Shown here: positions 34,615 through 64,000 of the stretch, one piece after another
How positions within the stretch are numbered: the first letter of the stretch is position 1
Layout: each line of letters begins with the position of its first letter
Source: Eledone cirrhosa
Taxonomy: Eukaryota
DNA length: 64,000 nt
Direction of reading: 5' to 3'
NCBI GenBank assembly: GCA_964016885.1
Contig: OZ024748.1
Coordinates: 34,844,001-34,908,000 of the forward strand
Notes under the pieces: generated by a model
Told to the model about the DNA's origin: nothing
Seen by the model: only the letters and a program-made list of their open reading frames with translations
Database searches by the model: none
Made by a program: the position numbers and the translations under genes

Positions 34615-35497
34615 TTGTGGTGGTGGTGGTGATGGTAGTGGTGGTAGGGGTAGTGGTAGTATTGGTGGTGGTGGTGGTGGTGATGTTGGTAGTGGTGGTA
34701 GTATTGGTGGTGGTGGTGATGGTGGTATTGGTAGTATTGGTGGTGATGGTGGTGGTGGTAGTATTGGTGGTGGTGGTAGTGGTAGTATTGGTGGTAGTGG
34801 TAGTATTGGTGGTGGTGGTAGTAGTATTGGTGGTGGTGGTAGTATTGGTGGTGGTGGTGGTAGTAGTATTGGTGGTAGTGGTAGTAGTATTGGTGGTGGT
34901 GGTGGTGGTAGTATTGTTGGTGGTGGTAGTAGTATTGGTGGTGGTGGTGGTGGTGGTGGTAGTAGTATTGGTGGTGGTGGTGGTGGTAGTATTGGTGGTG
35001 GTGGTGGTAGTAGTATTGGTGGTGGTGGTGGTAGTAGTATTGGTGGTGGTGGTAGTAGTAGTATTGGTGGTGGTCGTAATATTGGTGGTGGTAGTGGTAG
35101 TAGTATTGGTGGTGGTGTTAGTATCGGTGGTGGTGGTAGTAGTGGTGGTGGTGGTGGTAGTAGTAGTAGTAGTACTGGTGGTGGTGGTAGTATTGGTAGT
35201 AGTGGTGGTGATGGTCGTGGTGGTGGTATTGGTAGTATTGGTGGTGATGGTGGTGGTAGTATTGGTGGTGATGGTGGTAGTATTGGTGGTGGTGGTGATG
35301 GTGGTGGTAGTATTGGTGGTGGTGATGGTGATGGTGGTGGTAGTATTGGTGGTGATGGTAATGGTAGTATTGGTGGTGGTGGTGGTAGTATTGGTGGTGA
35401 TGGTGGTAGTGGTGGTGATGGTGATAGTGATAGTATTGATGATGGTGGTTGTAGTATTGGTAGTAAAGTTGGTGGATATGTGGTAGTAGTAGTAGTA
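34615..35497. repeat. (GGT/GTA)n compound trinucleotide repeat filling an intron
   Basis: Direct inspection; gives a spurious poly-Val ORF. Confidence 0.92.
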
Positions 35498-35515
35498 TCA
35501 GTTCCTTCTACTCAC

Positions 35516-35643
35516 CTCTAGCTATTGTTCCAGCCACCATTGGTTTCCATAAATCACTGGAGTGCCATGGTCTGTACTTTAAATATGACTTTAACTGTTC
35601 ATAACATGTGAAGTAAATAACTGTAGCTGGTACTGCCATCACT
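35516..35643 (-). CDS. SLC25A40: SLC25A39/40-like internal exon (VMAVPATVIYFTCYEQLKSYLKYRPWHSSDLWKPMVAGTIAR); earlier exons lie beyond the window
   Basis: VMAVPATVIYFTCY matches SLC25A40; tttacag acceptor and gtgagt donor. Confidence 0.93.
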
Positions 35644-35651
35644 CTGTAAAT

Positions 35652-38600
35652 AGGAGTTAGATGGATGGTATACAGGGGTTAGATGGATGGTAGACAGGAG
35701 TTACATGGATGGTAGACAGGAGTAAGATGGATGGTATACAGGGGTTAGATGGATGGTAGACAGGAGTTACATGGATGGTAGACAGGGGTTAGATGGATGG
35801 TAGACTAGTTACATGGATGGTAGACAGGAGTAAGATGGATGGTAGACAGTAGTTACATGAATGGTAGTCAGGGGTTAGATGGATGGTAGACAGTAGTTAC
35901 ATGGATGGTAGGCAAGAGTAAGATGGATGGTATACAGGGGTTAGATGGATGGTAGACAGTAGTTACATGGATGGTAGACAGGAGTAAGATGGATGGTATA
36001 CAGGGGTTAGATGGATGGTAGACAGTAGTTACATGGATGGTAGGCAAGAGTAAGATGGATGGTATACAGGGGTTAGATGGATGGTAGACAGTAGTTACAT
36101 GGATGGTAGACAGGAGTAAGATGGATGGTATACAGGGGTTAGATGGATGGTAGACAGTAGTTACATGGATGGTAGACAGGAGTAAGATGGATGGTATACA
36201 GGGGTTAGATGGATGGTAGACAGTAGTTACATGGATGGTAGGCAAGAGTAAGATGGATGGTATACAGGGGTTAGATGGATGGTAGACAGTAGTTACATGG
36301 ATGGTAGACAGGAGTAAGATGGATGGTATACAGGGGTTAGATGGATGGTAGACAGTAGTTACATGGATGGTAGGCAAGAGTAAGATGGATGGTATACAGG
36401 GGTTAGATGGATGGTAGACAGTAGTTACATGAATGGTAGTCAGGGGTTAGATGGATGGTAGACAGTAGTTACATGGATGGTAGGCAGGAGTAAGATGGAT
36501 GGTAGACAGGGGTTAGATGGATGGTAGACAGTAGTTACATGGATGGTATACAGGGGTTAGATGGATGGTAGATAGGAGTTACATGGATGGTAGACAGGGG
36601 TTAGATGGATGGTAGACAGGGGTTAGATGGATGGTAGACAGTAGTTACATGGATGGTAGACAGGAGTAAGATGGATGGTAGACAGGGGTTAGATGGATGG
36701 TAGACAGTAGTTACATGGATGGTAGACAGGGGTTAGATGAATGGTAGACAGGGGTTAGATGGATGGTAGACAGGAGTACCATGGATGGTCGACAGGAGTT
36801 AGATGGATGGTAGACATGGGTTAGATGGATGGTAGACAGTAGTTACATGGATGGTAGACAGGAGTAAGATGGATGGTAGACAGGGGTTAGATGGATGGTA
36901 GACAGTAGTTACATGTATGGGAGACAGGAGTTAGATGGATGGTAGACATGGGTTAGATGGATGGTAGACAGTAGTTACATGGATGGTAGACAGGAGTAAG
37001 ATGGATGGTATACAGGGGTTAGATGGATGGTATACAGGGGTTAGATGGATGGTAGACAGGAGTTACATGGATGGTAGACAGGAGTTAGATGGATGGTAGA
37101 CAGTAGTTAATGGATGGTATACAGGAGTAAGATGAATGGTATACAGGGGTTAGATGGATGGTAGACAGGAGTTACATGGATGGTAGACAGGAGTTACATG
37201 GATGGTAGACAAGAGTTAGATGGATGGTAGACAGGGGTTAGATGGATGGTAGACAGTAGTTACATAGATTGTAGACAGGAATAACATGGATGGTCGACAG
37301 GAGTTACATGGATGGTACACAGGAGTTAGATGGATGGTAGACAGGAGTTACATGGATGGTAGACAGGAGTTAGATGGATGGTAGGCAGGAGTAAGATGGA
37401 TGATACACAGGAGTTACATGGATGGTAGACAGGAGTAACATGGATGGTAAACAGGAGTTACATGGATGGTAGACAGTAGTAAGATGGATCGTAGACAGGA
37501 GTTACATGGATGGTGGACAGGAGTTACATGGATGGTAGACAGGAGTTACATGGATGGTAGACAGGAGTAACATGGATGATACACAGGAGTTACATGGATG
37601 GTAGGCAGGAATTACATGGATGGTAAACAGGAGTTACATGGATGGTGGACAGGAGTTACATGGATGGTAGCCAGGAGTAAGATGGATGGTGGACAGGAGT
37701 AACATGGATGGTAGACAGGAGTTACATGGATGGTAGACAGTAGTAACATGGATTGTAGCCAGGAGTAAGATGGTTGGTAGGCAGGAGTAACATGGATGGT
37801 AGACAGTAGATACATGGATGGTAGACAGTAGATACATGGATGGTAGACAGGAGTAACATGGGTGGTTGACAGGAGTAACATGGATGGTGGTCAGGAGTAA
37901 CATAGGTGGTAGACAGGAGTAAGATAGATGATAGACAGGAGTTACATGGATGGTAGACAGGAGTAAGATGGATGGTAGACAGGAGTAACATGGATGGTAG
38001 ACAGTAGATACATGGATGGTAGACAGTAGATACATGGATGGTAGACAAGAGTAACATGGATGGTAGACAGGAGTAAGATGGGTGGTAGACAGGAATTACA
38101 TAGATGGTGTACAGGAGTAACATGGATGGTATACAGGAGTAACGTAGAGGGTAAACAGGAGTTACATGGATGGTAGACAGGAGTTAGATGGATGGTAGAC
38201 AGGAGTTACATGGATGGTGGACATGAGTTACATGTATGGTGGACAGGAGTCACATGGATGGTGGACAGGAGTTACATGGATGGTAGACAGGAGTAAGTTG
38301 GATGGTAGACTGGAGTTACATGGATGGTAGACAGGAGTTACATGGATGGTGGACAGGAGTTACATGGATGGTGGACAGGAGTTACATGGATGGTAGTCAG
38401 GAGTAACATGGATGGTAGACAGGAGTAAGTTGGATGGTAGACTGGAGTTACATGGATGGTAGACAGGAGTTACATGGATGGTGGACAGGAGTTACATGGA
38501 TGGTGGACAGGAGTTACATGGATGGTAGTCAGGAGTAACATGGATGGTAGACAGGAGTAAGTTGGATGGTAGACTGGAGTTACATGGATGGTGGACAGGA

Positions 38601-41600
38601 GTAACATGGATGGCAGTCAGGAGTAAGATGGATGGTAGACAGGAGTTACATGGATGGTAGACAGGAGTAACATGGATGGTAGACAGGAGTTACATGGATG
38701 GTAGACAGGGGTTAGATGGATGGTAGACAGGAGTTACATGGATGGTAGACAGGAGTAACATGGATGGTAGACAGGAGTTAGATGGATGGTAGACAGAAGT
38801 TACATGGATGGTAGACAGGAGTTACATGGATGGTAGACAGGAGTAACATGGATGGTAGACAGGAGTAACATGGATGGTAGACAGGAGTTACATGGATGGT
38901 GGACAGGAGTAACGTTGATGGTAACCAGTTGTTACATGGATGGTAGACAGGAGTAAGATGGATGGCAGACAGGAGTAAGATGGATGGCAGACAGGAGTAA
39001 CATGGATGGTAGACAGGTGTAAGATGGATGATAGACAGGAGTTACATGGATGGTAGACAGGAGTTACATGGATGGTGGACAGTAGTAACATGGATGACAG
39101 CCAGGTGTTACAAGGATGGTAGATAGGAGTAAGATGGATGGTAGACAGGAGTTACATGGATGGTAGACAGGAATTACATGGATGAGAGACAGGAGTAACA
39201 TGGATGGTGGACAGGAGTTACATGGATGGTAGACAGTAGTAACATGGATGGTAGACAAGAGTAACATGGATGGTAGACAGGACTTACATGGATCGTAGAC
39301 AGGATTTACATGGATGGTAAACAGGAGTAACATGGATGGTGGACAGGAGTAGCATGGATAGACAGGAGTTACATGGATGGTGGACAGGAGTAACATGGAT
39401 GGTAGACAGGAGTAAGATGGATGGTAGACAGTAGTAAGATGGATGGTAGACAGGTGTAAGATGGATGATAGACAGGAGTTACATGGATGGTAGACAGGAG
39501 TTACATGGATGGTGGACAGTAGTAACATGGATGACAGCCAGGTGTTACAAGGATGGTAGACAGCAGTTACATGGATGGTAGACAGGAGTTACATGGATGG
39601 TAGACAGGAGTAAGATGGATGGTAGACAGGAGTAAGATGGATGGTAGACAGGGGTTACATGGATGGTAGACAGGAGTTACATGGATGGTAGACAAGAGTA
39701 ACATTGATGGTAGCCAGGAGTAAGTTGGGTGGTAGACAGGAGTTACATGGATGGTAGACAGGAGTAAAATGGATGGTAGACAGGAGTTACATGGATGGTA
39801 GACAGGAGTTACATGGATGGTGAGAAGTTACATGGATGGTGAGCAGGAGTTACATGGATGGTGAGCAGGAGTTAGATGGATGGTAGGCAGGAGTAAGTTG
39901 GGTGGTAGACAGGAGTTAGATGAATGGTAGACAGGAGTTAGATGAATGGTAGACAGGAGTTAGATGAATGGTAGACAGGAGTTAGATGAATGGTAGACAG
40001 GAGTTAGATGGATGGTAGGCAGGAGTTAGATGGATGGCAGACAGGAGTTACATGGATGGTAGGCTGGAGTTACATGGATGGTAGGCTGGAGTTACATGGA
40101 TGGTAGACAGGAGTTACATGGATGGTAGGCAGGAGTAACATGGATGGTAGTCAGGAGTTACATGGATGGTAGGCAGGAGTAACATGGATGGTAGACAGGA
40201 GTTACATGGATGGTAGACAGGAGTAAGATGGATGGTAGACAGTAATTACATGGATGGTAGACAGGAGTTACATGGATCGTAGACAGGAGTTAGATGGATG
40301 GTAGACAGGAGTTAGATGGATGGTAGTCAGGAGTTAGATGGATGGTAGACAGGAGTTAGATGGATGGTAGGCAGGAGTTAGATGAATGGTAGACAGGAGT
40401 TAGATGGATGGTAGACAGGAGTTACATGGATGGTAGACAGGAGTTAGATGGATGGTAGACAGGAGTTACATGGATGGTAGACAGGAGTTACATGGATGGT
40501 AGACAGTAGTAAGATGGATGGTAGACAGGAGTAAGATGAATGGTAGACAGGAGTAAGATGGATGGTAGACAGGAGTAAGATGGATGGTAGACAGGAGTTA
40601 CATGGATGGTAGACAGGAGTAACATGGATGGTAGACAGGAGTAACATGGATGGTGGACAGGAGTTTATGGATGGTAGACAGGAGTTACATGGATGGTAGA
40701 CAATAGTTACATGGATGGTGGGCAGGAGTAACGTGGATGGTAGACAGGAGTTAGATGGATGGTAGACAGGAGTTAGATGGATGGTAGACAAGAGTTACAT
40801 GGATGGTAGACAGTAGTAAGATGGATGATAGACAGGAGTTACATGGATGATAGACAGGAGTTACATGGATGGTAGACAGTAGTAAGATGGATGGTAGACA
40901 GGAGTAAGATGAATGGTAGACAGGAGTAACATGGATGGTAGACAATAGTTACATGGATGGTAGACAGGAGTTAGATGGATGGTAGACAGGAGTTACATGG
41001 ATGGTAGACAGGAGTAAGATGGATGGTAAACAGGAGTTACATGGATGGTAGACAGGAGTTACATGGATGGTGGACAGGAGTTAGACGGATGGTAGAAAGG
41101 AGTTACATGGATGGTAGACAGGTGTTAGATGGATGGTAGGCAGGAGTTAGATGGATGGTAGACAGGAGTTACATGGATGGTAGACAGGAGTTAGATGGAT
41201 GGTAGACAGGAGTTAGATGGATGGTAGACAGGAGTAAGATGGATGGTAGACAGGAGTTACATGGATGGTAGACAGGAGTTACATGGATGGTAGACAGGAG
41301 TAACGTAGAGGGTAAACAGGAGTTACATGGATGGTAGACAGGAGTAACATGGATGGTAGACAGGAGTAACATGGATGGTAGACAGGAGTAAGATGGGTGG
41401 TTGACAGGAGTAACATGGATGGTGGTCAGGAGTAACATGGTTGGTAGACAGGAATTACATGGATGGTGGACAGGAGTAACATGGATGGTAGACAGGAGTT
41501 ACATGGATGGTATACAGGAGTAAGTTGGATGGTAGACAGGAGTTACATGGATGGTAGTCAGGAGTAAGATGGATGGTAGACAGGAGTTACATGAATGGTA

Positions 41601-44600
41601 GACAGGAGTTACATGGATGGTAGACAGGAGTTACATGGATGGTAGACAAGAGTTACATGGATGGTAGACAGGATTTACATGGATGGTGGTCAGGAGTAAC
41701 ATGGATGGTGGTCAGGAGTAACATGGATGGTAGACAGGAGTTACATGGATGGTAGACAGTAGTAACATGGATTGTAGACAGTAGTAACACGGATGGTACA
41801 CAGGAGTTACATGGATGGTAGACAGGAGTTACATGGATGGTGGTCAGGAGTAACATGAATGGTAGGCAGGAGTTACATGGATGGTAGACAGGAGTAAGAT
41901 GGATGGTAGACAGGAGTTACATGGATGGTAGACAGGAGTTAGATGGATGGTGGACAGGAGTAAGTTGGGTGGTAGACAGGTGTTATAAGGATGGTAGACA
42001 GGAGTTACATGGATGGTAGACAGGAGTAAGATGGATGGTGGACAGGAGTAAGTTGGGTGGTAGACAGGAGTTACATGGATGGTAGACAGGAGTTACATGG
42101 ATGGTAGACAGGAGTTAGATGGATGGTAGACAGGAGTTAGATGGATGGTAGCAGGAGTAAGATGGGTGGTAGACAGGAGTAAGATGGGTGGTAGACAGGA
42201 GTTACATGGGTGGTAGACAGGAGTTACATGGATGGTAGACAGGAGTTACATGGATGGTAGACAGGAGTTAGATGGATGGTAGACAGGAGTTACATGGATG
42301 GTAGGCAGGAGTTACATGGATGGTAGACAGGAGTAAGATGGATGGTAGACAGGAGTTACATGGATGGTAGACAGGAGTTAGATGGATGGTAGACAGGAGT
42401 AAGATGTATGGTGGACAGGAGTAAGATGGATGGTAGACAGGAGTAAGATGGATGGTAAACAGGAGTTACATGGATGGTAGACAGGAGTTACATGGATGGT
42501 GGGCAGGAGGGACAGTAGTAACATGGATGGTTGATAGGAGTAACATGTATGGTAGACAGGAGTAACATGGATGCTAGACAGGAGTAAGATGGATGGTAGA
42601 CAGGGGTTACATGGATGGTAGTAAGGAGTAACATGGATGGTAGAGTGAATTTTGATGGATGGTAAACTGGAGTTACATGGATGGTAGACTGGAGTTACAT
42701 GGATTGTAAACAGGAGTTACATGGATGGTGGACAGGAGTAACATGGATGGTAGACAAGAGTAACATGGATGGTGGACAGAAGTAACATGGATGGTGGACA
42801 GAAGTAACATGGATGGTGGACAGAAGTAACATGGATGGTGGACAGGAGTACCATGGATGGTAGGCAGGAATTACAGGGATGGTGGACAGGAGTACCATGG
42901 ATGGTAGGCAGGAATTACATGGATGGTGGACAGGAGTTACATGGATGGTAGGCAGGAGTAAGATGGATGGTAAACAGGAGGTACATGGATGGTAGACAGA
43001 AGTAAGATGGATGGTAAACAGGAGTTACATGGATGGTAGACAGGAGTACCATGGATGGTAGGCAGGAATTACATGGATGGTGGACAGGAGTTACATGGAT
43101 GGTAGACAGGAGTTACATGGATGGTAGACAGGAGTAAGATGGATGGTGGACAGGAGTAACATGGATGGTAGACAGGAGTTACATGGATGGTAGACAGTAG
43201 AAACATGGATGGTACACAGGAGTTACATGGATGGTAGACAGGAGTTACATGGATGGTGGTCAGGAGTAACATGGATGGTAGACAGGAGTTACATGGATGG
43301 TAGACAGGAGTAAGATGGATGGTAGACAGGAGTTACATGGATGGTAGACAGGAGTTAGATGGATGGTAGACAGGAGTAAGATGGATGGTGGACAGGAGTA
43401 AGTTGGGTGGTAGACAGGTGTTATAAGGATGGTAGACAGGAGTTACATGGATGGTAGACAGGAGTTACATGGATGGTAGACAGGAGTTAGATGGATGGTA
43501 GACAGGAGTTACATGGATGGTAGACAGGAGTTACATGGGTGGTAGACAGGAGTTACATGGGTGGTAGACAGGAGTAAGATGGATGGTAGACAGGAGTTAC
43601 ATGGATGGTAGACAGGAGTTAGATGGATGGTAGACAGGAGTAAGATGTATGGTGGACAGGAGTAAGATGGATGGTAGACAGGAGTAAGATGGATGGTAAA
43701 CAGGAGTTACATGGATGGTAGACAGGAGTTACATGGATGGTGGGCAGGAGGGACAGTAGTAACATGGATGGTTGATAGGAGTAACATGTATGGTAGACAG
43801 GAGTAACATGGATGCTAGACAGGAGTAAGATGGATGGTAGACAGGGGTTACATGGATGGTAGTAAGGAGTAACATGGATGGTAGAGTGAATTTTGATGGA
43901 TGGTAAACTGGAGTTACATGGATGGTAGACTGGAGTTACATGGATGGTAAACAGGAGTTACATGGATGGTGGACAGGAGTAACATGGATGGTAGACAAGA
44001 GTAACATGGATGGTGGACAGAAGTAACATGGATGGTGGACAGAAGTAACATGGATGGTGGACAGGAGTACCATGGATGGTAGGCAGGAATTACATGGATG
44101 GTGGACAGGAGTACCATGGATGGTAGGCAGGAATTACATGGATGGTGGACAGGAGTTACATGAATGGTAGGCAGGAGTAAGATGGATGGTAAACAGGAGT
44201 TACATGGATGGTAGACAGAAGTAAGATGGATGGTAAACAGGAGTTACATGGATGGTAGACAGGAGTACCATGGATGGTAGGCAGGAATTACATGGATGGT
44301 GGACAGGAGTTACATGGATGGTAGACAGGAGTAAGATGGATGGTAGACAGGAGTTACATGGATGGTAGACAGGGGTTACATGGATGGTAGACAGGAGTAA
44401 CATGGATGGTAGACAGGAGTTACATGGATGGTGGACAGGAGTAACGTGGATGGTAAACAGTTGTTACATGGATGGTAGACAGGAGTAAGATGGATGGTAG
44501 ATAGGAGTTATATGGATGGTAGACAGGAGTAAGATGGATGGTAGATAGGAGTTATATGGATGGTAGACAGGAGTTACATGGATGGTGGACAGTAGTAACA

Positions 44601-47600
44601 TGGATGGTAGACGGGAGTTACATGGATGGTGGACAGTAGTAACATGGATGGTAGACAGGAGTAAGATGGATGGTAGACAGGAGTTACATGGATGGTAGAC
44701 AGGAGTTAGATGTATGGTGGACAGGAGTAAGATGGATGGTAGACAGGAGTTACATGGATGGTAGACAGGATTTACATGGATGGTGGACAGGAGTAAAATA
44801 GATGGTGGACAGGAGTTACATGGATGGTAGACAGGACTAACATGGATGGTAGACAAGAGTTACATGGATGGTAGACAGGATTTACATGGATGGTGGACAG
44901 GAGTAAAATAGATGGTGGACAGGAGTTACATAGATGGTTGAGAGGAGTTACATGGATGGTAGACAGGAGTAGACATGGATGATAGACAGGAGTTACATGG
45001 ATGGTAGACAAGAGTAACATGGATGGTAGACAGGAGTTACATGGATCGTAGACAGGATTTACATGGATGGTAAACAGGAGTAACATGGATGGTGGACAGG
45101 AGTAAGTTGGATGGTAGACAGGAGTTACTTGTATGGTGGACAGGAGGGACAGGAGTAACATGGATGCTACACAGGAGTTACAGGGATGGTGGACAGTAGT
45201 AACATGGATGACAGCCAGGTGTTACAAGGATGGTAGAAAGTAGTAAGATGGATGGTAGACAGGAGTTACATGGATGGTAGACAGGTATTACATGGATGGT
45301 AGACAGGAGTTACATGGATGGTAGACAGGAGTTACATGGATGGTAGACAGGAGTAAGATGGATGGTAGGCAGGAGTAAGCTGGATGGTAGGCATGAGTTA
45401 CATGGATGGTAGGCAGGAGTTACATGGATGGTAGGCAGGAGTTACATGGATGGTAGGCAGGAGTTAGATGGATGTTAGACAGGATTTACATGGATGGTAG
45501 ACAGGAGTAACATGGATGGTAGACAGTAATTACATGGATGGTAGACAGGAGTTACATGGATGGTAGACAGGAGTTAGATGGATGGTAGACAGTAGTAAGA
45601 TGGATGGTAGTCAGGGGTTAGATGGATGGTAGTCAGGGGTTAGATGGATGGTGGACAGGGGTTAGATGGATGGTAGACAGGAGTAACGTGGATGGTAGAC
45701 AGGAGTAACGTGGATGGTAGACAGGAGTTACATGGATGGTAGACAGGAGTAAGATGGATGGTAGATAGGAGTTATATGGATGGTAGACAGGAGTTACATG
45801 GATGGTGGACAGTAGTAACATGGATGGTAGACAGGAGTTACATGGATGGTGGACAGTAGTAACATGGCTGGTAGACAACAGTAACATGGATGGTAGACAG
45901 GAGTAACATGGATGGTAGACAGGAGTTACATGGATGGTAGACAGGAGTAACATGGATGGTAGACAGGAGTTACATGGATGGTAGACAGGATTTACATGGA
46001 TGGTGGACAGGAGTAAAATAGATGGTGGACAGGAGTTACATAGATGGTTGACAGGAGTTACATGGATGGTAGACAGGAGTAGACATGGATGATAGACAGG
46101 AGTTACATGGATGGTAGACAAGAGTAACATGGATGGTAGACAGGAGTTACTTGTATGGTGGACAGGAGTAACATGGATGCTACACAGGAGTTACAGGGAT
46201 GGTAGACAGGAGTTACAGGGATGGTGGACAGTAGTAACATGGATGACAGCCAGGTGTTACAAGGATGGTAGAAAGTAGTAAGATGGATGGTAGACAGGAG
46301 TTACATGGATGGTAGACAGGTATTACATGGATGGTAGACAGGAGTTACATGGATGGTAGACAGGAGTTACATGGATGGTAGACAGGAGTTAGATGGATGG
46401 TAGGCAGGAGTTAGATGGATGGTAGGCAGGAGTTAGATGGATGGTAGACAGGAGTTACATGGATGGTAGACAGGAGTTAGATGGATGGTAGACAGGAGTT
46501 AGATGGATGGTAGACAGGAGTAAGATGGATGGTAGACAGGAGTTACATGGATGGTAGACAGGAGTTACATGGATGGTAGACAGGAGTAACGTAGAGGGTA
46601 AACAGGAGTTACATGGATGGTAGACAGGAGTAACATGGATGGTAGACAGGAGTAAGATGGATGGTAGACAGGAGTAAGATGGGTGTTTGACAGGAGTAAC
46701 ATGGATGGTGGTCAGGAGTAACATTGTTGGTAGACAGGAATTACATGGATGGTGGACAGGAGTAACATGTATGGTAGACAGGAGTTACATGGATGGTATA
46801 CAGGAGTAAGTTGGATGGTAGACAGGAGTTACATGGATGGTAGTCAGGAGTAAGATGGATGGTAGACAGGAGTTACATGAATGGTAGACAGGAGTTACAT
46901 GGATGGTAGACAGGAGTTACATGGATGGTAGAAAAGAGTTACATGGATGGTAGACAGGATTTACATGGATGGTGGACAGGAGTAACATGGATTGTAAACA
47001 GGAGTTACATGGATGGTAAACTGGAGTTACATGGATGGTAGACTGGAGTTACATGGATTGTAAACAGGAGTTACATGGATGGTGGACAGGAGAAACATGG
47101 ATGGTAGACAAGAGTAACATGGATGGTGGGCAGAAGTAACATGGATGGTGGACAGAAGTAACATGGATGGTGGACAGGAGTACCATGGATGGTAGACAGG
47201 AGTAAGATGGATGGTGGACAGGAGTAACATGGATGGTAGACAGGAGTTACATGGATGGTAGACAGTAGTAACATGGATTGTAGACAGTAGTAACATGGAT
47301 GGTACACAGGAGTTACATGGATGGTAGACAGGAGTTACATGGATGGTGGTCAGGAGTAACATGGATGGTAGACAGGAGTTACATGGATGGTAGACAGGAG
47401 TAAGATGGATGGTAGACAGGAGTTACATGGATGGTAGACAGGAGTTAGATGGATGGTAGACAGGAGTAAGATGGATGGTGGACAGGAGTAAGTTGGGTGG
47501 TAGACAGGTGTTATAAGGATGGTAGACAGGAGTTACATTGATGGTAGCAGGAGTAAGATGGGTGGTAGACAGGAGTAAGATGGGTGGTAGACAGGAGTTA

Positions 47601-50600: not shown

Positions 50601-53600
50601 TCAGGAGTAACATGGATGGTAGACAGGAGTTACATGGATGGTAGACAGTAGTAACATGGATTGTAGACAGTAGTAACATGGATGGTACACAGGAGTTACA
50701 TGGATGGTAGACAGGAGTTACATGGATGGTGGTCAGGAGTAACATGAATGGTAGACAGGAGTTACATGGATGGTAGACAGGAGTAAGATGGATGGTAGAC
50801 AGGAGTTACATGGATGGTAGACAGGAGTTAGATGGATGGTAGACAGGAGTAAGATGGGTGGTAGACAGGAGTTACATGGGTGGTAGACAGGAGTTACATG
50901 GATGGTAGACAGGAGTTACATGGATGGTAGACAGGAGTTAGATGGATGGTAGACAGGAGTTACATGGATGGTAGACAGGAGTAAGATGGATGGTAGACAG
51001 GAGTTACATGGATGGTAGACAGGAGTTAGATGGATGGTAGACAGGAGTAAGATGTATGGTGGACAGGAGTAAGATGGATGGTAGACAGGAGTAAGATGGA
51101 TGGTAAACGGGAGTTACATGGATGGTAGACAGGAGTTACATGGATGGTGGGCAGGAGGGACAGTAGTAACATGGATGGTTGATAGGAGTAACATGTATGG
51201 TAGACAGGAGTAACATGGATGCTAGACAGGAGTAAGATGGATGGTAGACAGGGGTTACATGGATGGTAGTAAGGAGTAACATGGATGGTAGAGTGAATTT
51301 TGATGGATGGTAAACTGGAGTTACATGGATGGTAGACTGGAGTTACATGGATTGTAAACAGGAGTTACATGGATGGTGGACAGGAGTAACATGGATGGTA
51401 GACAAGAGTAACATGGATGGTGGACAGAAGTAACATGGATGGTGGACAGAAGTAACATGGATGGTGGACAGGAGTACCATGGATGGTAGGCAGGAATTAC
51501 ATGGATGGTGGACAGGAGTTACATGGATGGTAGGCAGGAGTAAGATGGATGGTAAACAGGAGTTACATGGATGGTAGACAGAAGTAAGATGGATGGTAAA
51601 CAGGAGTTACATGGATGGTAGACAGGAGTACCATGGATGGTAGGCAGGAATTACATGGATGGTGGACAGGAGTTACATGGATGGTAGGCAGGAGTTACAT
51701 GGATGGTAGACAGGAGTAAGATGGATGGTGGACAGGAGTAACATGGATGGTAGACAGGAGTTACATGGATGGTAGACAGTAGTAACATGGATTGTAGACA
51801 GTAGTAACATGGATGGTACACAGGAGTTACATGGATGGTAGACAGGAGTTACATGGATGGTGGTCAGGAGTAACATGGATGGTAGACAGGAGTTACATGG
51901 ATGGTAGACAGGAGTAAGATGGATGGTAGACAGGAGTTACATGGATGGTAGACAGGAGTTAGATGGATGGTAGACAGGAGTAAGATGGATGGTGGACAGG
52001 AGTAAGTTGGGTGGTAGACAGGTGTTATAAGGATGGTAGACAGGAGTTACATGGATGGTAGCAGGAGTAAGATGGGTGGTAGACAGGAGTTACATGGGTG
52101 GTAGACAGGAGTTACATGGATGGTAGACAGGAGTTACATGGATGGTAGACAGGAGTTAGATGGATGGTAGACAGGAGTTACATGGATGGTAGACAGGAGT
52201 TACATGGGTGGTAGACAGGAGTTACATGGGTGGTAGACAGGAGTAAGATGGATGGTAGACAGGAGTTACATGGATGGTAGACAGGAGTTAGATGGATGGT
52301 AGACAGGAGTAAGATGTATGGTGGACAGGAGTAAGATGGATGGTAGACAGGAGTAAGATGGATGGTAAACAGGAGTTACATGGATGGTAGACAGGAGTTA
52401 CATGGATGGTGGGCAGGAGGGACAGTAGTAACATGGATGGTAGTAAGGAGTAACATGGATGGTAGAGTGAATTTTGATGGATGGTAAACTGGAGTTACAT
52501 GGATGGTAGACTGGAGTTACATGGATGGTAAACAGGAGTTACATGGATGGTGGACAGGAGTAACATGGATGGTAGACAAGAGTAACATGGATGGTGGACA
52601 GAAGTAACATGGATGGTGGACAGGAGTACCATGGATGGTAGGCAGGAATTACATGGATGGTGGACAGGAGTACCATGGATGGTAGGCAGGAATTACATGG
52701 ATGGTGGACAGAGTTACATGAATGGTAGGCAGGAGTAAGATGGATGGTAAACAGGAGTTACATGGATGGTAGACAGAAGTAAGATGGATGGTAAACAGGA
52801 GTTACATGGATGGTAGACAGGAGTACCATGGATGGTAGGCAGGAATTACATGGATGGTGGACAGGAGTTACATGGATGGTAGACAGGAGTAAGATGGATG
52901 GTAGACAGGAGTTACATGGATGGTAGACAGGGGTTACATGGATGGTAGACAGGAGTAACATGGATGGTAGACAGGAGTTACATGGATGGTGGACAGGAGT
53001 AACGTGGATGGTAAACAGTTGTTACATGGATGGTAGACAGGAGTAACATGGATGGTAGATAGGAGTTATATGGATGGTAGACAGGAGTAAGATGGATGGT
53101 AGATAGGAGTTATATGGATGGTAGACAGGAGTTACATGGATGGTGGACAGTAGTAACATGGATGGTGGACAGGAGTTACACGGATGGTGGACAGTAGTAA
53201 CATGGATGGTAGACAGGAGTTACATGGATGGTGGACAGTAGTAACATGGATGGTAGACAGGAGTAAGATGGATGGTAGACAGGAGTTACATGGATGGTAG
53301 ACAGGAGTTAGATGGATGGTGGACAGGAGTAAGATGGATGGTAGACAGGAGTTACATGGATGGTAGACAGGATTTACATGGATGGTGGACAGGAGTAAAA
53401 TAGATGGTGGACAGGAGTTACATGGATGGTAGACAGGAGTAACATGGATGGTAGACAGGAGTTACATGGATGGTAGACAGGATTTACATGGATGGTGGAC
53501 AGGAGTAAAATAGATGGTGGACAGGAGTTACATAGATGGTTGAGAGGAGTTACATGGATGGTAGACAGGAGTAGACATGGATGATAGACAGGAGTTACAT

Positions 53601-56600
53601 GGATGGTAGACAAGAGTAACATGGATGGTAGACAGGAGTTACATGGATCGTAGACAGGATTTACATGGATGGTAAACAGGAGTAACATGGATGGTGGACA
53701 GGAGTAAGTTGGATGGTAGACAGGAGTTACTTGTATGGTGGACAGGAGGGACAGGAGTAACATGGATGCTACACAGGAGTTACAGGGATGGTGGACAGTA
53801 GTAACATGGATGACAGCCAGGTGTTACAAGGATGGTAGAAAGTAGTAAGATGGATGGTAGACAGGAGTTACATGGATGGTAGACAGGTATTACATGGATG
53901 GTAGACAGGAGTTACATGGATGGTAGACAGGAGTTACATGGATGGTAGACAGGAGTAAGATGGATGGTAGGCAGGAGTAAGCTGGATGGTAGGCAGGAGT
54001 AAGCTGGATGGTAGGCAGGAGTTACATGGATGGTAGGCAGGAGTTACATGGATGGTAGGCAGGAGTTACATGGATGGTAGGCAGGAGTTAGATGGATGTT
54101 AGACAGGAGTTACATGGATGGTAGACAGGAGTAACATGGATGGTAGACAGTAATTACATGGATGGTAGACAGGAGTTACATGGATGGTAGACAGGAGTTA
54201 GATGGATGGTAGACAGGAGTTATATGGATGGTAGCCAGGAGTTAGATGGATGGTAGACAGTAGTAAGATGGATGGTAGACAGTAGTAAGATGGATGGTAG
54301 TCGGGGGTTAGATGGATGGTGGACAGGGGTTAGATGGATGGTAGACAGGAGTAAGATGGATGGTAGACAGTAGTAAGATGGATGGTAGTCAGGGGTTAGA
54401 TGGATGGTAGTCAGGGGTTAGATGGATGGTGGACAGGGGTTAGATGGATGGTAGACAGGAGTAACGTGGATGGTAGACAGGAGTAACGTGGATGGTAGAC
54501 AGGAGTTACATGGATGGTAGACAGGAGTAAGATGGATGGTAGATAGGAGTTATATGGATGGTAGACAGGAGTTACATGGATGGTGGACAGTAGTAACATG
54601 GATGGTAGACAGGAGTTACATGGATGGTAGACAACAGTAACATGGATGGTAGACAGGAGTAACATGGATGGTAGACAGGAGTTACATGGATGGTAGACAG
54701 GAGCAACATGGATGGTAGACAGGAGTTACATGGATGGTAGACAGGATTTACATGGATGGTGGACAGGAGTAAAATAGATGGTGGACAGGAGTTACATAGA
54801 TGGTTGACAGGAGTTACATGGATGGTAGACAGGAGTAGACATGGATGATAGACAGGAGTTACATGGATGGTAGACAAGAGTAACATGGATGATAGACAGG
54901 AGTTACATGGATCGTAGACAGGATTTACATGGATGGTAAACAGGAGTAACATGGATGGTGGACAGGAGTAAGTTGGATGGTAGACAGGAGTTACTTGTAT
55001 GGTGGACAGGAGGGACAAGAGTAACATGGATGCTACACAGGAGTTACAGGGATGGTAGACAGGAGTTACAGGGATGGTGGACAGTAGTAACATGGATGAC
55101 AGCCAGGTGTTACAAGGATGGTAGAAAGTAGTAAGATGGATGGTAGACAGGAGTTACATGGATGGTAGACAGGTATTACATGGATGGTAGACAGGAGTTA
55201 CATGGATGGTAGACAGGAGTTACATGGATGGTAGACAGGAGTTAGATGGATGGTAGGCAGGAGTTAGATGGATGGTAGGCAGGAGTTAGATGGATGGTAG
55301 ACAGGAGTTACATGGATGGTAGACAGGAGTTAGATGGATGGTAGACAGGAGTTAGATGGATGGTAGACAGGAGTAAGATGGATGGTAGACAGGAGTTACA
55401 TGGATGGTAGACAGGATTACATGGATGGTAGACAGGAGTAACGTAGAGGGTAAACAGGAGTTACATGGATGGTAGACAGGAGTAAGATGGGTGGTTGACA
55501 GGAGTAACATGGATGGTGGTCAGGAGTAACATGGTTGGTAGACAGGAATTACATGGATGGTGGACAGGAGTAACATGGATGGTAGACAGGAGTTACATGG
55601 ATGGTATACAGGAGTAAGTTGGATGGTAGACAGGAGTTACATGGAGGGTAGTCAGGAGTAAGATGGATGGTAGACAGGAGTTACATGAATGGTAGACAGG
55701 AGTTACATGGATGGTAGACAGGAGTTACATGGGTGGTAGACAGGAGTTACATGGATGGTAGACAGGAGTTACATGGATGGTAGACAGGAGTTAGATGGAT
55801 GGTAGACAGGAGTTACATGGATGGTAGACAGGAGTTACATGGATGGTAGACAGGAGTAAGATGGATGGTAGACAGGAGTTACATGGATGGTAGACAGGAG
55901 TTAGATGGATGGTAGACAGGAGTAAGATGTATGGTGGACAGGAGTAAGATGGATGGTAGACAGGAGTAAGATGGATGGTAAACAGGAGTTACATGGATGG
56001 TAGACAGGAGTTACATGGATGGTGGGCAGGAGGGACAGTAGTAACATGGATGGTTGATAGGAGTAACATGTATGGTAGACAGGAGTAACATGGATGCTAG
56101 ACAGGAGTAAGATGGATGGTAGACAGGGGTTACATGGATGGTAGTAAGGAGTAACATGGATGGTAGAGTGAATTTTGATGGATGGTAAACTGGAGTTACA
56201 TGGATGGTAGACTGGAGTTACATGGATTGTAAACAGGAGTTACATGGATGGTGGACAGGAGAAACATGGATGGTAGACAAGAGTAACATGGATGGTGGGC
56301 AGAAGTAACATGGATGGTGGACAGAAGTAACATGGATGGTGGACAGGAGTACCATGGATGGTAGACAGGAGTAAGATGGATGGTGGACAGGAGTACCATG
56401 GATGGTAGACAGGAGTAAGATGGATGGTGGACAGGAGTAACATGGATGGTAGACAGGAGTTACATGGATGGTAGACAGTAGTAACATGGATTGTAGACAG
56501 TAGTAACATGGATGGTACACAGGAGTTACATGGATGGTAGACAGGAGTTACATGGATGGTGGTCAGGAGTAACATGGATGGTAGACAGGAGTTACATGGA

Positions 56601-59600
56601 TGGTAGACAGGAGTAAGATGGATGGTGGACAGGAGTAAGTTGGGTGGTAGACAGGTGTTATAAGGATGGTAGACAGGAGTTACATGGATGGTAGCAGGAG
56701 TAAGATGGGTGGTAGACAGGAGTAAGATGGGTGGTAGACAGGAGTTACATGGATGGTAGACAGGAGTTACATGGATGGTAGGAGTTACATGGATGGTAGA
56801 CAGGAGTTACATGGATGGTAGACAGGAGTTACATGGATGGTAGACAGGAGTTAGATGGATGGTAGACAGGAGTTACATGGATGGTAGCAGGAGTAAGATG
56901 GGTGGTAGACAGGAGTTACATGGATGGTAGACAGGAGTTACATGGGTGGTAGACAGGAGTTACATGGATGGTAGACAGGAGTTACATGAATGGTAGACAG
57001 GAGTTAGATGGATGGTAGGCAGGAGTTACATGGATGGTAGACAGGAGTTACATGGGTGGTAGACAGGAGTTACATGGGTGGTAGACAGGAGTAAGATGGA
57101 TGGTAGACAGGAGTTACATGGATGGTAGACAGGAGTTAGATGGATGGTAGACAGGAGTAAGATGTATGGTGGACAGGAGTAAGATGGATGGTAAACAGGA
57201 GTTACATGGATGGTAGACAGGAGTTACATGGATGGTGGGCAGGAGGGACAGTAGTAACATGGATGGTTGATAGGAGTAACATGTATGGTAGACAGGAGTA
57301 ACATGGATGCTAGACAGGAGTAAGATGGATGGTAGACAGGGGTTACATGGATGGTAGTAAGGAGTAACATGGATGGTAGAGTGAATTTTGGTGGATGGTA
57401 AACTGGAGTTACATGGATGGTAGACTGGAGTTACATGGATGGTAAACAGGTGTTACATGGATGGTGGACAGGAGTAACATGGATGGTAGACAAGAGTAAC
57501 ATGGATGGTGGACAGAAGTAACGTGGATGGTGGACAGAAGTAACATGGATGGTGGACAGGAGTACCATGGATGGTAGGCAGGAATTACATGGATGGTGGA
57601 CAGGAGTACCATGGATGGTAGGCAGGAATTACATGGATGGTGGACAGGAGTTACATGAATGGTAGGCAGGAGTAAGATGGATGGTAAACAGGAGTTACAT
57701 GGATGGTAGACAGGAGTACCATGGATGGTAGGCAGGAATTACATGGATGGTGGACAGGAGTTACATGGATGGTAGACAGGAGTAAGATGGATGGTAGACA
57801 GGAGTTACATGGATGGTAGACAGGGGTTACATGGATGGTAGACAGGAGTAACATGGATGGTAGACAGGAGTTACATGGATGGTGGACAGGAGTAACGTGG
57901 ATGGTAAACAGTTGTTACATGGATGGTAGACAGGAGTAAGATGGATGGTAGATAGGAGTTATATGGATGGTAGACAGGAGTAAGATGGATGGTAGATAGG
58001 AGTTATATGGATGGTAGACAGGAGTTACATGGATGGTGGACAGTAGTAACATGGATGGTAGACAGGAGTTACATGGATGGTGGACAGTAGTAACATGGAT
58101 GGTAGACAGGAGTAAGATGGATGGTAGGCAGGAGTTACATGGATGGTAGACAGGAGTTAGATGGATGGTAGACAGGAGTAAGATGTATGGTGGACAGGAG
58201 TAAGATGGATGGTAGACAGGAGTTACATGGATGGTAGACAGGATTTACATGGATGGTGGACAGGAGTAAAATAGATGGTGGACAGGAGTTACATGGATGG
58301 TAGACAGGAGTAACATGGATGGTAGACAGGAGTTACATGGATGGTAGACAGGATTTACATGGATGGTGGACAGGAGTAAAATAGATGGTGGACAGGAGTT
58401 ACATAGATGGTTGAGAGGAGTTACATGGATGGTAGACAGGAGTAGACATGGATGATAGACAGGAGTTACATGGATGGTAGACAGGAGTTACATGGATGGT
58501 AGACAGGATTTACATGGATGGTGGACAGGAGTAAAATAGATGGTGGACAGGAGTTACATAGATGGTTGAGAGGAGTTACATGGATGGTAGACAGGAGTAG
58601 ACATGGATGATAGACAGGAGTTACATGGATGGTAGACAAGAGTAACATGGATGGTAGACAGGAGTTACATGGATCGTAGACGGGATTTACATGGATGGTA
58701 AACAGGAGTAACATGGATGGTGGACAGGAGTAAGTTGGATGGTAGACAGGAGTTACTTGTATGGTGGACAGGAGGGACAGGACTAACATGGATGCTACAC
58801 AGGAGTTACAGGGATGGTGGACAGTAGTAACATGGATGACAGCCAGGTGTTACAAGGATGGTAGAAAGTAGTAAGATGGATGGTAGACAGGAGTTACATG
58901 GATGGTAGACAGGTATTACATGGATGGTAAACTGGAGTTACATGGATGGTAGTCAGGAGTTACATGGATGGTAGACAGGAGTAAGATGGATGGTAGGCAG
59001 GAGTAAGCTGGATGGTAGGCAGGAGTTACATGGATGGTAGGCAGGAGTTACATGGATGGTAGACAAGAGTTACATGGATGGTGGGCAGGAGTTAGATGGA
59101 TGGTAGACAGGAGTTATATGGATGGTAGGCAGGAGTTAGATGGATGTTAGACAGGAGTTACATGGATGGTAGACTGGAGTAACATGGATGGTAGACAGTA
59201 ATTACATGGATGGTAGACAGGAGTTAGATGGATGGTAGACAGGAGTTAGATGGATGGTAGACAGGAGTTATATGGATGGTAGCCAGGAGTTAGATGGATG
59301 GTAGACAGGAGTAAGATGGATGGTAGACAGTAGTAAGATGGATGGTAGTCAGGGGTTAGATGGATGGTAGTCAGGGGTTAGATGGATGGTGGACAGGGGT
59401 TAGATGGATGGTAGACAGGAGTAACGTGGATGGTAGACAGGAGTAACGTGGATGGTAGACAGGAGTTACATGGATGGTAGACAAGAGTAAGATGGATCGT
59501 AGATAGGAGTTATATGGATGGTAGACAGGAGTTACATGGATGGTGGACAGTAGTAACATGGATGGTAGACAGGAGTTACATGGATGGTGGACAGTAGTAA

Positions 59601-62600
59601 CATGGATGGTAGACAGGAGTTACATGGCTGGTAGACAACAGTAACATGGATGGTAGACAGGAGTAACATGGATGGTAGACAGGAGTTACATGGATGGTAG
59701 ACAGGAGTAACATGGATGGTAGACAGGAGTTACATGGATGGTAGACAGGATTTACATGGATGGTGGACAGGAGTAAAATAGATGGTGGACAGGAGTTACA
59801 TAGATGGTTGACAGGAGTTACATGGATGGTGGACAGGAGTTACATAGATGGTTGACAGGAGTTACATGGATGGTAGACAGGAGTAGACATGGATGATAGA
59901 CAGGAGTTACATGGATGGTAGACAAGAGTAACATGGATGGTAGACAGGAGTTACATGGATCGTAGACAGGATTTACATGGATGGTAAACAGGAGTAACAT
60001 GGATGGTGGACAGGAGTAAGTTGGATGGTAGACAGGAGTTACTTGTATGGTGGACAGGAGGGACAGGAGTAACATGGATGCTACACAGGAGTTACAGGGA
60101 TGGTAGACAGGAGTTGCAGGGATGGTGGACAGTAGTAACATGGATGACAGCCAGGTGTTACAAGGATGGTAGAAAGTAGTAAGATGGATGGTAGACAGGA
60201 GTTACATGGATGGTAGACAGGTATTACATGGATGGTAGACAGGAGTTACATGGATGGTAGACAGGAGTTACATGGATGGTAGACAGGAGTTAGATGGATG
60301 GTAGGCAGGAGTTAGATGGATGGTAGGCAGGAGTTAGATGGATGGTAGACAGGAGTTACATGGATGGTAGACAGGAGTTAGATGGATGGTAGACAGGAGT
60401 TAGATGGATGGTAGACAGGAGTAAGATGGATGGTAGACAGGAGTTACATGGATGGTAGACAGGAGTTACATGGATGGTAGACAGGAGTAACGTAGAGGGT
60501 AAACAGGAGTTACATGGATGGTAGACAGGAGTAACATGGATGGTAGACAGGAGTAACATGGATGGTAGACAGGAGTAAGATGGGTGGTTGACAGGAGTAA
60601 CATGGATGGTGGTCAGGAGTAACATGGTTGGTAGACAGGAATTACATGGATGGTGGACAGGAGTAACATGGATGGTAGACAGGAGTTACATGGATGGTAT
60701 ACAGGAGTAAGTTGGATGGTAGACAGGAGTTACATGGATGGTAGTCAGGAGTAAGATGGATGGTAGACAGGAGTTACATGAATGGTAGACAGGAGTTACA
60801 TGGATGGTAGACAGGAGTTACATGGATGGTAGACAAGAGTTACATGGATGGTAGACAGGATTTACATGGATGGTGGACAGGAGTAACATGGATGGTAGAC
60901 AGGAGTTACATGGATGGTAGACAGTAGTAACATGGATTGTAGACAGTAATAACATGGATGGTACACAGGAGTTACATGGATGGTAGACAGGAGTTACATG
61001 GATGGTGGTCAGGAGTAACATGGATGGTAGACAGGAGTTACATGGATGGTAGACAGGAGTAAGATGGATGGTAAACAGGAGTTACATGGATGGTAGACAG
61101 GAGTTAGATGGATGGTAGACAGGAGTAAGATGGATGGTGGACAGGAGTAAGTTGGGTGGTAGACAGGTGTTATAAGGATGGTAGGCAGGAGTTACATGGA
61201 TGGTAGACAGGAGTAAGATGGGTGGTAGACAGGAGTAAGATGGGTGGTAGGCAGGAGTTACATGGGTGGTAGACAGGAGTTACATGGATGGTAGACAGGA
61301 GTTACATGGATGGTAGACAGGAGTTAGATGGATGGTAGACAGGAGTTACATGGATGGTAGACAGGAGTTACATGGATGGTAGACAGGAGTAAGATGGATG
61401 GTAGACAGGAGTTACATGGATGGTAGACAGGAGTTAGATGGATGGTAGACAGGAGTAAGATGTATGGTGGACAGGAGTAAGATGGATGGTAGACAGGAGT
61501 AAGATGGATGGTAAACAGGAGTTACATGGATGGTAGACAGGAGTTACATGGATGGTGGGCAGGAGGGACAATAGTAACATGGATGGTTGATAGGAGTAAC
61601 ATGTATGGTAGACAGGAGTAACATGGATGCTAGACAGGAGTAAGATGGATGGTAGACAGGGGTTACATGGATGGTAGTAAGGAGTAACATGGATGGTAGA
61701 GTGAATTTTGATGGATGGTAAACTGGAGTTACATGGATGGTAGACTGGAGTTACATGGATGGTAAACAGGAGTTACATGGATGGTGGACAGGAGAAACAT
61801 GGATGGTAGACAAGAGTAACATGGATGGTGGACAGAAGTAACATGGATGGTGGACAGAAGTAACATGGATGGTGGACAGGAGTACCATGGATGGTAGGCA
61901 GGAATTACTTGGATGGTGGACAGGAGTTACATGGATGGTAGACAGGAGTAAGATGGATGGTAGACAGTAGTAACATGGATTGTAGACAGTAGTAACATGG
62001 ATGGTACACAGGAGTTACATGGATGGTAGACAGGAGTTACATGGATGGTAGACAGGAGTTACATGGATGGTAGACAGGAGTAAGATGGATGGTAGACAGG
62101 AGTTACATGGATGGTAGACAGGAGTTAGATGGATGGTAGACAGGAGTAAGATGGATGGTGGACAGGAGTAAGTTGGGTGGTAGACAGGTGTTATAAGGAT
62201 GGTAGACAGGAGTTACATGGATGGTAGACAGAAGTAAGATGGATGGTAAACAGGAGTTACATGGATGGTAGACAGGAGTACCATGGATGGTAGGCAGGAA
62301 TTACATGGATGGTGGACAGGAGTTACATGGATGGTAGACAGGAGTAAGATGGATGGTGGACAGGAGTACCATGGATGGTAGACAGGAGTAAGATGGATGG
62401 TGGACAGGAGTAACATGGATGGTAGACAGGAGTTACATGGATGGTAGACAGTAGTAACATGGATTGTAGACAGTAGTAACATGGATGGTACACAGGAGTT
62501 ACATGGATGGTAGACAGGAGTTACATGGATGGTGGTCAGGAGTAACATGGATGGTAGACAGGAGTTACATGGATGGTAGACAGGAGTAAGATGGATGGTA

Positions 62601-64000
62601 GACAGGAGTTACATGGATGGTAGACAGGAGTTAGATGGATGGTAGACAGGAGTAAGATGGATGGTGGACAGGAGTAAGTTGGGTGGTAGACAGGTGTTAT
62701 AAGGATGGTAGACAGGAGTTACATGGATGGTAGCAGGAGTAAGATGGGTGGTAGACAGGAGTAAGATGGGTGGTAGACAGGAGTTACATGGATGGTAGAC
62801 AGGAGTTACATGGATGGTAGGAGTTACATGGATGGTAGACAGGAGTTACATGGATGGTAGACAGGAGTTACATGGATGGTAGACAGGAGTTAGATGGATG
62901 GTAGACAGGAGTTACATGGATGGTAGCAGGAGTAAGATGGGTGGTAGACAGGAGTTACATGGATGGTAGACAGGAGTTACATGGGTGGTAGACAGGAGTT
63001 ACATGGATGGTAGACAGGAGTTACATGAATGGTAGACAGGAGTTAGATGGATGGTAGGCAGGAGTTAGATGGATGGTAGACAGGAGTTACATGGGTGGTA
63101 GACAGGAGTTACATGGGTGGTAGACAGGAGTAAGATGGATGGTAGACAGGAGTTACATGGATGGTAGACAGGAGTTAGATGGATGGTAGACAGGAGTAAG
63201 ATGTATGGTGGACAGGAGTAAGATGGATGGTAAACAGGAGTTACATGGATGGTAGACAGGAGTTACATGGATGGTGGGCAGGAGGGACAGTAGTAACATG
63301 GATGGTTGATAGGAGTAACATGTATGGTAGACAGGAGTAACATGGATGCTAGACAGGAGTAAGATGGATGGTAGACAGGGGTTACATGGATGGTAGTAAG
63401 GAGTAACATGGATGGTAGAGTGAATTTTGGTGGATGGTAAACTGGAGTTACATGGATGGTAGACTGGAGTTACATGGATGGTAAACAGGAGTTACATGGA
63501 TGGTGGACAGGAGTAACATGGATGGTAGACAAGAGTAACATGGATGGTGGACAGAAGTAACGTGGATGGTGGACAGAAGTAACATGGATGGTGGACAGGA
63601 GTACCATGGATGGTAGGCAGGAATTACATGGATGGTGGACAGGAGTACCATGGATGGTAGGCAGGAATTACATGGATGGTGGACAGGAGTTACATGGATG
63701 GTAGACAGGAGTTACATGAATGGTGGACAGGAGTTACATGGATGGTAGACAGGAGTACCATGGATGGTAGGCAGGAATTACATGGATGGTGGACAGGAGT
63801 TACATGGATGGTAGACAGGAGTAAGATGGATGGTAGACAGGAGTTACATGGATGGTAGACAGGGGTTACATGGATGGTAGACAGGAGTAACATGGATGGT
63901 AGACAGGAGTTACATGGATGGTGGACAGGAGTAACGTGGATGGTAAACAGTTGTTACATGGATGGTAGACAGGAGTAAGATGGATGGTAGATAGGAGTTA
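35652..64000. repeat. 22-bp satellite array (consensus acaggagttacatggatggtag), more than 28 kb, about 1300 units, intronic in the SLC25A40-like gene
   Basis: Continuous 22-nt periodicity to the window end, with recurring variant blocks. Confidence 0.98.

Follow-up and report, generated by a model that had tools for sequence, protein, structure and literature searches.

A 53.5-kb minisatellite extending to the acceptor of an SLC25A39/40 intron in Eledone cirrhosa

How can an intron be spliced when tandem repeats make up almost all of it and run to within 8 nt of its acceptor, and where does such a repeat come from? The question is raised by a 64-kb window of the octopod Eledone cirrhosa (the whole stretch analysed here: 64,000 nt of contig OZ024748.1, assembly GCA_964016885.1, positions 34,844,001 to 34,908,000), in which coding intron 3 of an SLC25A39/40 mitochondrial carrier gene consists of a giant 22-nt satellite that continues past the window end. 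An earlier reading of the letters alone, hereafter the sequence-only reading, proposed that the branch-point region of this intron had been amplified, and that the result was tolerated because it creates no competing acceptor. We consider it probable that this is a locus-specific minisatellite which arose by duplication of the branch-point zone, grew neutrally to 53.5 kb, owes its lack of AG to its seed or to simple composition, and leaves splicing to ordinary exon definition. The array is ordinary as an intronic minisatellite, if an extreme one, and giant arrays of this sort recur in other introns of the genome. Coordinates below are positions in the 64-kb window; an extended position is the contig position minus 34,844,000, counted on past the window end.

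The array and its host gene

The gene lies on the minus strand, and the features that frame the array are the following.

31451..35643, minus strand: coding exons 4-9 of SLC25A39/40
35516..35643, minus strand: coding exon 4 (128 nt, a length not divisible by three), whose donor is strong at 10.2 bits
35644..64000 and on past the window, minus strand: coding intron 3, 53,875 nt, GT...AG, 99.3% array
35646..64000 and on to extended 89,143, minus strand: 22-nt minisatellite array, ~1,284 units in the window and ~2,420 units or 53.5 kb in all
extended 89,144-89,187: tail of a dispersed repeat, 44 nt, resembling a short interspersed element (SINE), directly 5' of the first unit
extended 89,519-89,586: coding exon 3, 68 nt, with the donor of intron 3 at extended 89,518 (7.8 bits)
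extended 93,127-89,519, minus strand: exons 1-3, beyond the window

The host gene has 9 coding exons with GT-AG borders, placed by protein homology, and encodes 345 amino acids with zero internal stops. Its best named relative is SLC25A40 of Octopus bimaculoides (304 of 349 aligned columns identical), and three exons match the Pfam family Mito_carr (PF00153), one of them above the curated cut-off. By homology, then, it is an SLC25A39/40 mitochondrial carrier, a label under which we keep 39 and 40 together. A search of the own genome gave no second copy, the other matches being only 28-32% identical. The remaining seven introns measure 330-2,577 nt, and intron 3 without its array would be comparable to them, at ~0.4 kb. 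Some of the isoform gaps in 120 homologues match other exon borders (after residues 91, 214 and 277-303), and none probed intron 3. The sequence-only reading was right that the array starts about 8 nt from the acceptor of an intact SLC25A40-like exon: the acceptor AG is at 35645-35644, the exon at 35643-35516, and the array is found from 35652. The acceptor reads CAG/AG (35645-35642, minus strand), and splicing to the second AG, 2 nt further on, would change the reading frame.

Tandem Repeats Finder follows the 22-nt array from 35652 to the window end, and the adjoining stretches add ~25 kb. A wrap-around parse gives 2,420 units, 2,337 of them without indels, with a mean of 1.78 mismatches to the consensus per unit. 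Head-to-tail units of this length fall within the size range (~10-100 nt) of locus-specific intronic minisatellites. Exact duplicates of at least 200 nt cover 69% of the array, and a near-perfect tandem duplication of 4.65 kb lies inside it; hence, growth through unequal exchange is indicated. At the far end, the tail of the dispersed repeat is flanked by two similar 7-8 nt words (extended 89,135-89,195), a weak candidate for a decayed target-site duplication.

The 4.65-kb duplication might also be taken as a sign that the array is an assembly artefact, and the three short-read sets that we used come from one sample and are possibly the source of the assembly. However, contigs from these runs cross the junction between exon and array without differences and likewise enter the array at its far end, in both cases at single-copy depth, and a variant with 19 assembled copies stands at 13-22x single-copy depth in both runs that list it. 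Since contigs run in at both ends and the depth of the variant fits its copy number, the array is probably real and its assembled length about right, with the reservation that the reads may be the assembly's own. That the gene is dying is countered by its intact open reading frame and by the failure of the own-genome search to return a second copy. We hold both an artefact and a dying gene to be very improbable.

Origin of the unit and position of the branch point

Splice sites were inferred in the myosin and kinesin genes of the same genome, and a scoring matrix was built from 84 of the 91 myosin introns. The 7 left out were low-margin introns, and one myosin gene with repeated exons (m4) was excluded from the inference of splice sites. 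The larger set of 173 introns used for comparison excludes introns with a profile score below 15. Three features at the end of intron 3 are needed here.

35644..35651, minus strand: last 8 bases of the intron, of which six align to unit positions 1-6 and are followed by the acceptor AG (35645-35644)
35656..35660, minus strand: CTAAC of the last full unit, with its adenosine at -14 (35657), probably too near the AG to serve
35678..35682, minus strand: CTAAC of the second-last full unit, with its adenosine at -36 (35679), the predicted branch point from its position

The unit is confined to this locus. Within the 3-Gb assembly all 486 exact matches, and 1,216 of the 1,217 matches to a degenerate pattern, fall inside the array, so that the satellite is not one that is common at unrelated loci. 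Its register is kept up to acceptor base -3, with a terminal match of four bases in six that includes a T-run absent from most internal units. When the acceptor AG is placed after each of the 22 unit positions in turn, its actual phase (after position 6) scores best for the CTAAC variant of the unit and second best for the consensus. The consensus unit itself holds neither AG nor exon sequence, and does not span the intron boundary as do the repeats of the mirage and F7 type discussed below. Because the register reaches -3, the terminal phase is the best-scoring one, only ~0.4 kb of intron remains besides the array, and the dispersed-repeat tail lies at the opposite end, we place the likely seed in the branch-point zone, the stretch of ~22 nt that separated the tail from the AG. 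The proposed amplification of the branch-point region thus keeps its likely site of origin and loses its copy number, which was given as "about 1300" and is 2,420. In the mechanism that we propose, the 22 nt directly upstream of the acceptor AG would have been duplicated in tandem, and the array would then have grown neutrally to 53.5 kb by unequal exchange.

The seed might instead have lain at another place in the intron, such as next to the dispersed-repeat tail, with the acceptor reached by expansion and deletion and with a branch point that was new and secondary. The array does start immediately after the SINE-like tail, the four-in-six terminal match is weak, and minisatellites end near acceptors at chance level in this genome: among 39 arrays in 173 introns, 1 lies within 30 nt of an acceptor against 1.06 expected, and 6 lie within 100 nt against 3.5 expected, with the same 6 at donors. 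Yet the similarity of the unit to the neighbouring tail is not significant (p=0.49), which leads us to reject a derivation from it. There is also zero non-array intron between tail and AG, so that seed and branch zone would nearly coincide in any case, and as an acceptor region the unit does best in precisely its terminal phase. We regard an origin elsewhere as unlikely.

Branch points usually lie 18-40 nt before the AG, and by this general distance rule the adenosine at -14 is probably too close. Both CTAAC adenosines, at -14 (35657) and -36 (35679), were found inside units, where the sequence-only reading had put them. With the conventional limit at 40 nt (PMC1431707) and only 8 nt between the last full unit and the exon, any branch point at a conventional distance has to fall inside the repeat, and judged by position it is most likely the A at -36. 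The AG-exclusion zone before the acceptor is 159 nt long, above a threshold of at least 150 nt, against a median of 42.5 nt in the 84 control introns, and the nearest upstream AG is at -162. The pattern of a distant branch point, at the 5' end of such a zone and with no near candidate, does not fit here, as candidate CTAAC motifs occur at -14 and -36.

The sequence-only reading also held that the pre-mRNA could carry hundreds of decoy sites for SF1/U2. CTAAC occurs 246 times in the 2,420 units (10%), the majority reading GTAAC, CTTAC or GTTAC. The SF1 motif is a sequence of the ACTAAC type, and neither ACTAAC nor TACTAAC occurs in the whole array. On these motif counts the decoy idea appears weakened. 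YCAY, a Nova-type site, occurs 4,934 times (92 per kb against 18 per kb in ordinary introns, a fivefold excess), and if any protein is soaked up by the array, YCAY binders would be a better candidate than SF1/U2.

Other devices were looked for and rejected. A hairpin masking the acceptor is ruled out, as the region folds worse than its shuffles (z=+1.97). Recursive splicing at AG/GT ratchet points is ruled out by zero AGGT in the array, against ~181 in an equal length of ordinary intron, and premature polyadenylation by zero AATAAA and ATTAAA.

AG content, site strength and selection

That the transcribed strand is nearly free of AG is correct: the 28.3 kb of array within the window hold 60 AG on the minus strand and 3,764 on the plus strand. 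Over the whole array the minus strand has 120 AG (65 CAG, 37 TAG and 18 AAG). However, this scarcity does not go clearly beyond chance. The unit contains two G, and shuffling it gives a sequence free of AG in 57% of cases, so that nothing more than chance is needed. Likewise, 38% of the 22-mers in six ordinary introns of the host gene are without AG. AG is not the rarest dinucleotide either, its ratio of observed to expected being 0.12 against 0.10 for GA and 0.05 for CG. In a mutation test from which unit positions 14 and 16 were excluded as balanced polymorphisms, 118 substitutions made AG, where the frequency of the same changes elsewhere in the unit predicts 169 (ratio 0.70, with 0.52 for GA and 0.20 for CG). 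Counted as distinct unit types they are 25 against 31.3 expected (Poisson p=0.15), and a depletion is not clear. The unit therefore likely lacks AG by inheritance from an AG-free seed zone or by simple composition, rather than by purging of AG-bearing units.

Nor does tolerance for want of competing acceptors, as the sequence-only reading had it, agree with the array and its genome. The 120 AGs are present, and of the 102 YAGs, 101 are preceded by a branch-like adenosine at the usual distance (-18 to -40). These sites are weak. The score of the authentic acceptor, 6.4 bits, is at the 14th percentile of real sites; the AGs of the array peak at 3.6 bits, and none reaches 6.4 bits, against ~71 in an ordinary intron of equal length. 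While exon 4 scores 16.6, no pseudo-exon of the array exceeds 9.3, and 58 of 119 pseudo-exons reach the 5th percentile of real exons, against ~368 per same length of ordinary intron. Weak donor-like sites, at or above the 5th percentile of real donors, number 1,058 and far outnumber the acceptor-like ones. One of them is stronger than the real donor.

39281..39289 (site at 39287), minus strand: donor-like unit variant, 9.8 bits against 7.8 for the authentic donor, with the nearest upstream AG ~780 nt off

The array is thus cleaner than an ordinary intron, yet such cleanliness is not required, as other arrays of the same genome show. The control set comprises 1,054,510 nt within 43 genes, 24% of it tandem repeat. 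Among its 58 minisatellites, the sense strand has fewer AG than the antisense strand in 28 and more in 29 (p=0.96), and the unit is AG-free in 6 on the sense and in 8 on the antisense strand. Six arrays of 10-81 kb lie between collinear myosin exons in 2 of the 43 genes and carry 21-206 AG per kb; those of 38-81 kb carry AG in every unit. Five of the six, at densities of 43-206 AG per kb, are in the myosin gene on C3 (81.0, 41.4, 19.3, 14.3 and 10.1 kb). Of the 7,467 AGs in the 81-kb array, 1,471 score at least as high as the acceptor under study. The sixth, a 37.7-kb array of a 45-mer in a myosin IX-like gene on C6 (~99,966,300-100,003,900), has 838 units and 806 AGs, about one TAG per unit, and stops 26 or 65 nt before the next exon, its last unit being without AG. 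Arrays over the branch window are not rare, occurring in 14 of 173 introns. For example, a kinesin gene on C22 (~7,742,400-7,743,980) has a 1.6-kb array of a 21-mer with CTAAC and CTGAC in the unit, 20 nt before the acceptor. Found separately from these 14, a kinesin gene on C17 (~12,845,100-12,847,450) has a 2.3-kb array of an AG-free 39-mer, 24 nt before a 62-nt exon.

Some further observations concern these control arrays. The C3 myosin gene (913483-1195001) has motor-domain exons that span ~314 kb, and also contains arrays of 9.0 and 5.3 kb; each of its minisatellites is different and locus-specific, and the 81-kb one is a 40-mer with a strong acceptor-like site in many units. The C22 array is a small parallel of the one in SLC25A39/40. 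A kinesin gene on C14 (~40,495,100-40,497,450) carries a 2.3-kb 18-mer in mid-intron, with an acceptor-like TTTACAG in many of its ~130 sense units. Finally, arrays of 46-50 nt with related units occur in many control introns in both orientations, and were probably seeded by one dispersed repeat.

In the explanation that we prefer, splicing would proceed by ordinary exon definition between the strong donor of exon 4 and the sole acceptor that combines a T-run with AG. The U2AF/U2 machinery would be anchored on the last units and would use the adenosine at -36 as branch point, passing over the copies further upstream because of the weakness of their AGs (at most 3.6 against 6.4 bits).

A different view is that the array is both tolerated and shaped by selection because AG is avoided, and that the units near the exon were selected for CTAAC. 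These units do form a subfamily of their own.

35652..37200, minus strand: exon-proximal subfamily of ~70 units, enriched in CTAAC, with private variants at unit positions 3, 19 and 20

The enrichment of CTAAC near the exon, suspected from the letters, was recovered: 30 of the last 70 units carry it, whereas other stretches of 70 units have it in 5 (median) and never in more than 22. Measured in fixed windows, AGs are few near the exon, with 1 in the last 2 kb, 7 in the last 5 kb and 8 in the last 7 kb, where windows of these sizes elsewhere have medians of 5, 12 and 16. Substitutions that make AG stand at 0.70 of expectation, as given above, and the three kb-scale arrays nearest to acceptors (8, 20 and 24 nt) all have AG-free consensus units. 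However, GA and CG are more depleted than AG, and the YAGs that are present nearly all have a branch-like A at a normal distance. Selection should be strongest in the final 0.5 and 1 kb, yet these are unremarkable (62% and 26% of other windows are equally low), with an AG already at -162, and an AG-free gap of 2,488 nt exists away from the exon. Other introns hold AG-rich giant arrays, one of which ends 26 or 65 nt before its acceptor. The units share ancestry, the CTAAC enrichment continues for 1.5 kb past the region in which a branch point could work, and the edges of arrays escape homogenisation without any need for selection, as described for amphioxus (PMC3087553). The modest polarity near the exon (CTAAC up, AG halved) leaves room for selection, to which we give a low probability.

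Several points weigh against neutral growth from a branch-zone seed. The CTAAC peak at the exon end could reflect selection, if one bears in mind that units are not independent. The last 7 kb have 0.025 AG per unit and the remainder of the array 0.053, with the same transversion load in both, and not one of 395 other 7-kb windows is as poor in AG, which is again possible selection among units that are not independent. The control intragenic DNA has a general deficit of AG on the sense strand (55,414 AG against 65,013 CT), as have all 1,063 control arrays pooled (8,811 AG against 16,151). A register match of four in six is weak, being equalled by chance in 20 of the 173 acceptors used for comparison. 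The matrix for scoring splice sites is a simple one that rests on 84 inferred introns, and the splicing of the control genes, too, was deduced from homology and not from RNA. The seed, the branch point and the splicing of intron 3 are themselves deductions from sequence.

A bolder proposal makes the amplified branch zone a functional splicing element. It would have a tuned edge (CTAAC up, AG halved) and a 53-kb body rich in YCAY and donor-like sites that serves as a nascent-RNA scaffold, controlling, for instance in neurons, whether the frame-shifting exon 4 of this glutathione-transporter gene is included; and it would be one case of a genome-wide gigantism of octopod introns through minisatellites of 10-80 kb. 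We consider this improbable.

Outside intron 3, a second AG-free repeat occurs in the gene: intron 4 (34613-35465) is mostly (ACC/ACT)n on the transcribed strand, with an AG-free zone of 609 nt. The rest of the window contains, on the plus strand, two remnants of non-long-terminal-repeat retrotransposons spread over several frames, at 4750-8161 (endonuclease, reverse transcriptase and zf-RVT) and at 8736-10180 (reverse transcriptase and DUF6451), and an open frame at 27756-28232 with a PHD-finger match slightly below the Pfam cut-off. There are further minisatellites at 14105-14681 (44-mer, 13 copies), 15870-16506 (64-mer, 10 copies, 99% identical) and 22696-23396 (44-mer, 16 copies).

Significance and known systems

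A literature search with partial coverage returned no giant minisatellite seeded from a branch zone, and no account of locus-specific intronic minisatellites of 10-81 kb as a source of gigantism. If intron 3 is spliced as predicted, it is a natural experiment in which ~2,400 branch-like motifs and 102 YAGs precede one real acceptor. Lariat mapping could then show whether the branch choice is anchored on the acceptor, although the textbook answer is expected and the surprise would be limited. The wider point may matter more: locus-specific minisatellites of 10-81 kb sit in the introns of ordinary genes of this genome, with six more in 2 of the 43 genes sampled. Such arrays are a source of intron gigantism, and short-read assemblies would collapse them.

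The known systems that come closest share some properties with the array. In the Drosophila Y-loop genes kl-3 and kl-5, satellites fill gigantic introns (Fingerhut 2019, PMC6508621), and intron 3 resembles these in being ~99% tandem repeat. However, the Y-loop genes are testis genes with megabases of simple satellites and dedicated RNA-binding proteins, whereas the present case is a 54 kb locus-specific 22-mer, known from sequence alone, in a single-copy mitochondrial carrier gene. Human splicing-associated tandem repeats, when near splice sites, can alter splicing, and in one case inserts containing TNA were predicted to keep it working (PMC10078293). Those repeats are short and polymorphic, with measured effects, while the SLC25A39/40 array is long and was read from the assembly.

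A human acceptor has an AG-exclusion zone of 369 nt caused by an AG-less repeat, with a branch candidate at -17, and its mouse orthologue has 31 nt (Gooding 2006, PMC1431707). Like the array, it combines a long AG-free zone from an AG-less repeat with a branch candidate in the normal place; the repeat is far smaller, and the portion of that paper used here does not state a derivation from the branch zone. In intron 7 of human F7, a variable number tandem repeat (VNTR) of 37 bp repeats the donor, and the copies are silent beside the authentic site (Borensztajn 2006, PMC1557585). It is a minisatellite seeded on a splice signal, as the array likely is, with many pseudo-signals that are silent in F7 and predicted to be so here. 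While the F7 VNTR involves a donor and spans the exon boundary, the SLC25A39/40 unit stops at -3, without AG or exon, and would repeat the branch zone ~2,420 times.

Finally, the mirages of amphioxus (Adh3 and globin genes) are minisatellite-like duplications at either intron boundary, for which the sections of the account considered here report no interference with splicing (PMC3087553). The array sits at an intron end as they do, and the edges of mirage clusters escape homogenisation (PMC3087553). Mirages span the boundary and in the globin genes have few units (3-6 in BflGb6), whereas the SLC25A39/40 array holds no exon sequence and is far longer. It thus lacks the boundary-spanning character of a mirage but, by analogy, would work like one.

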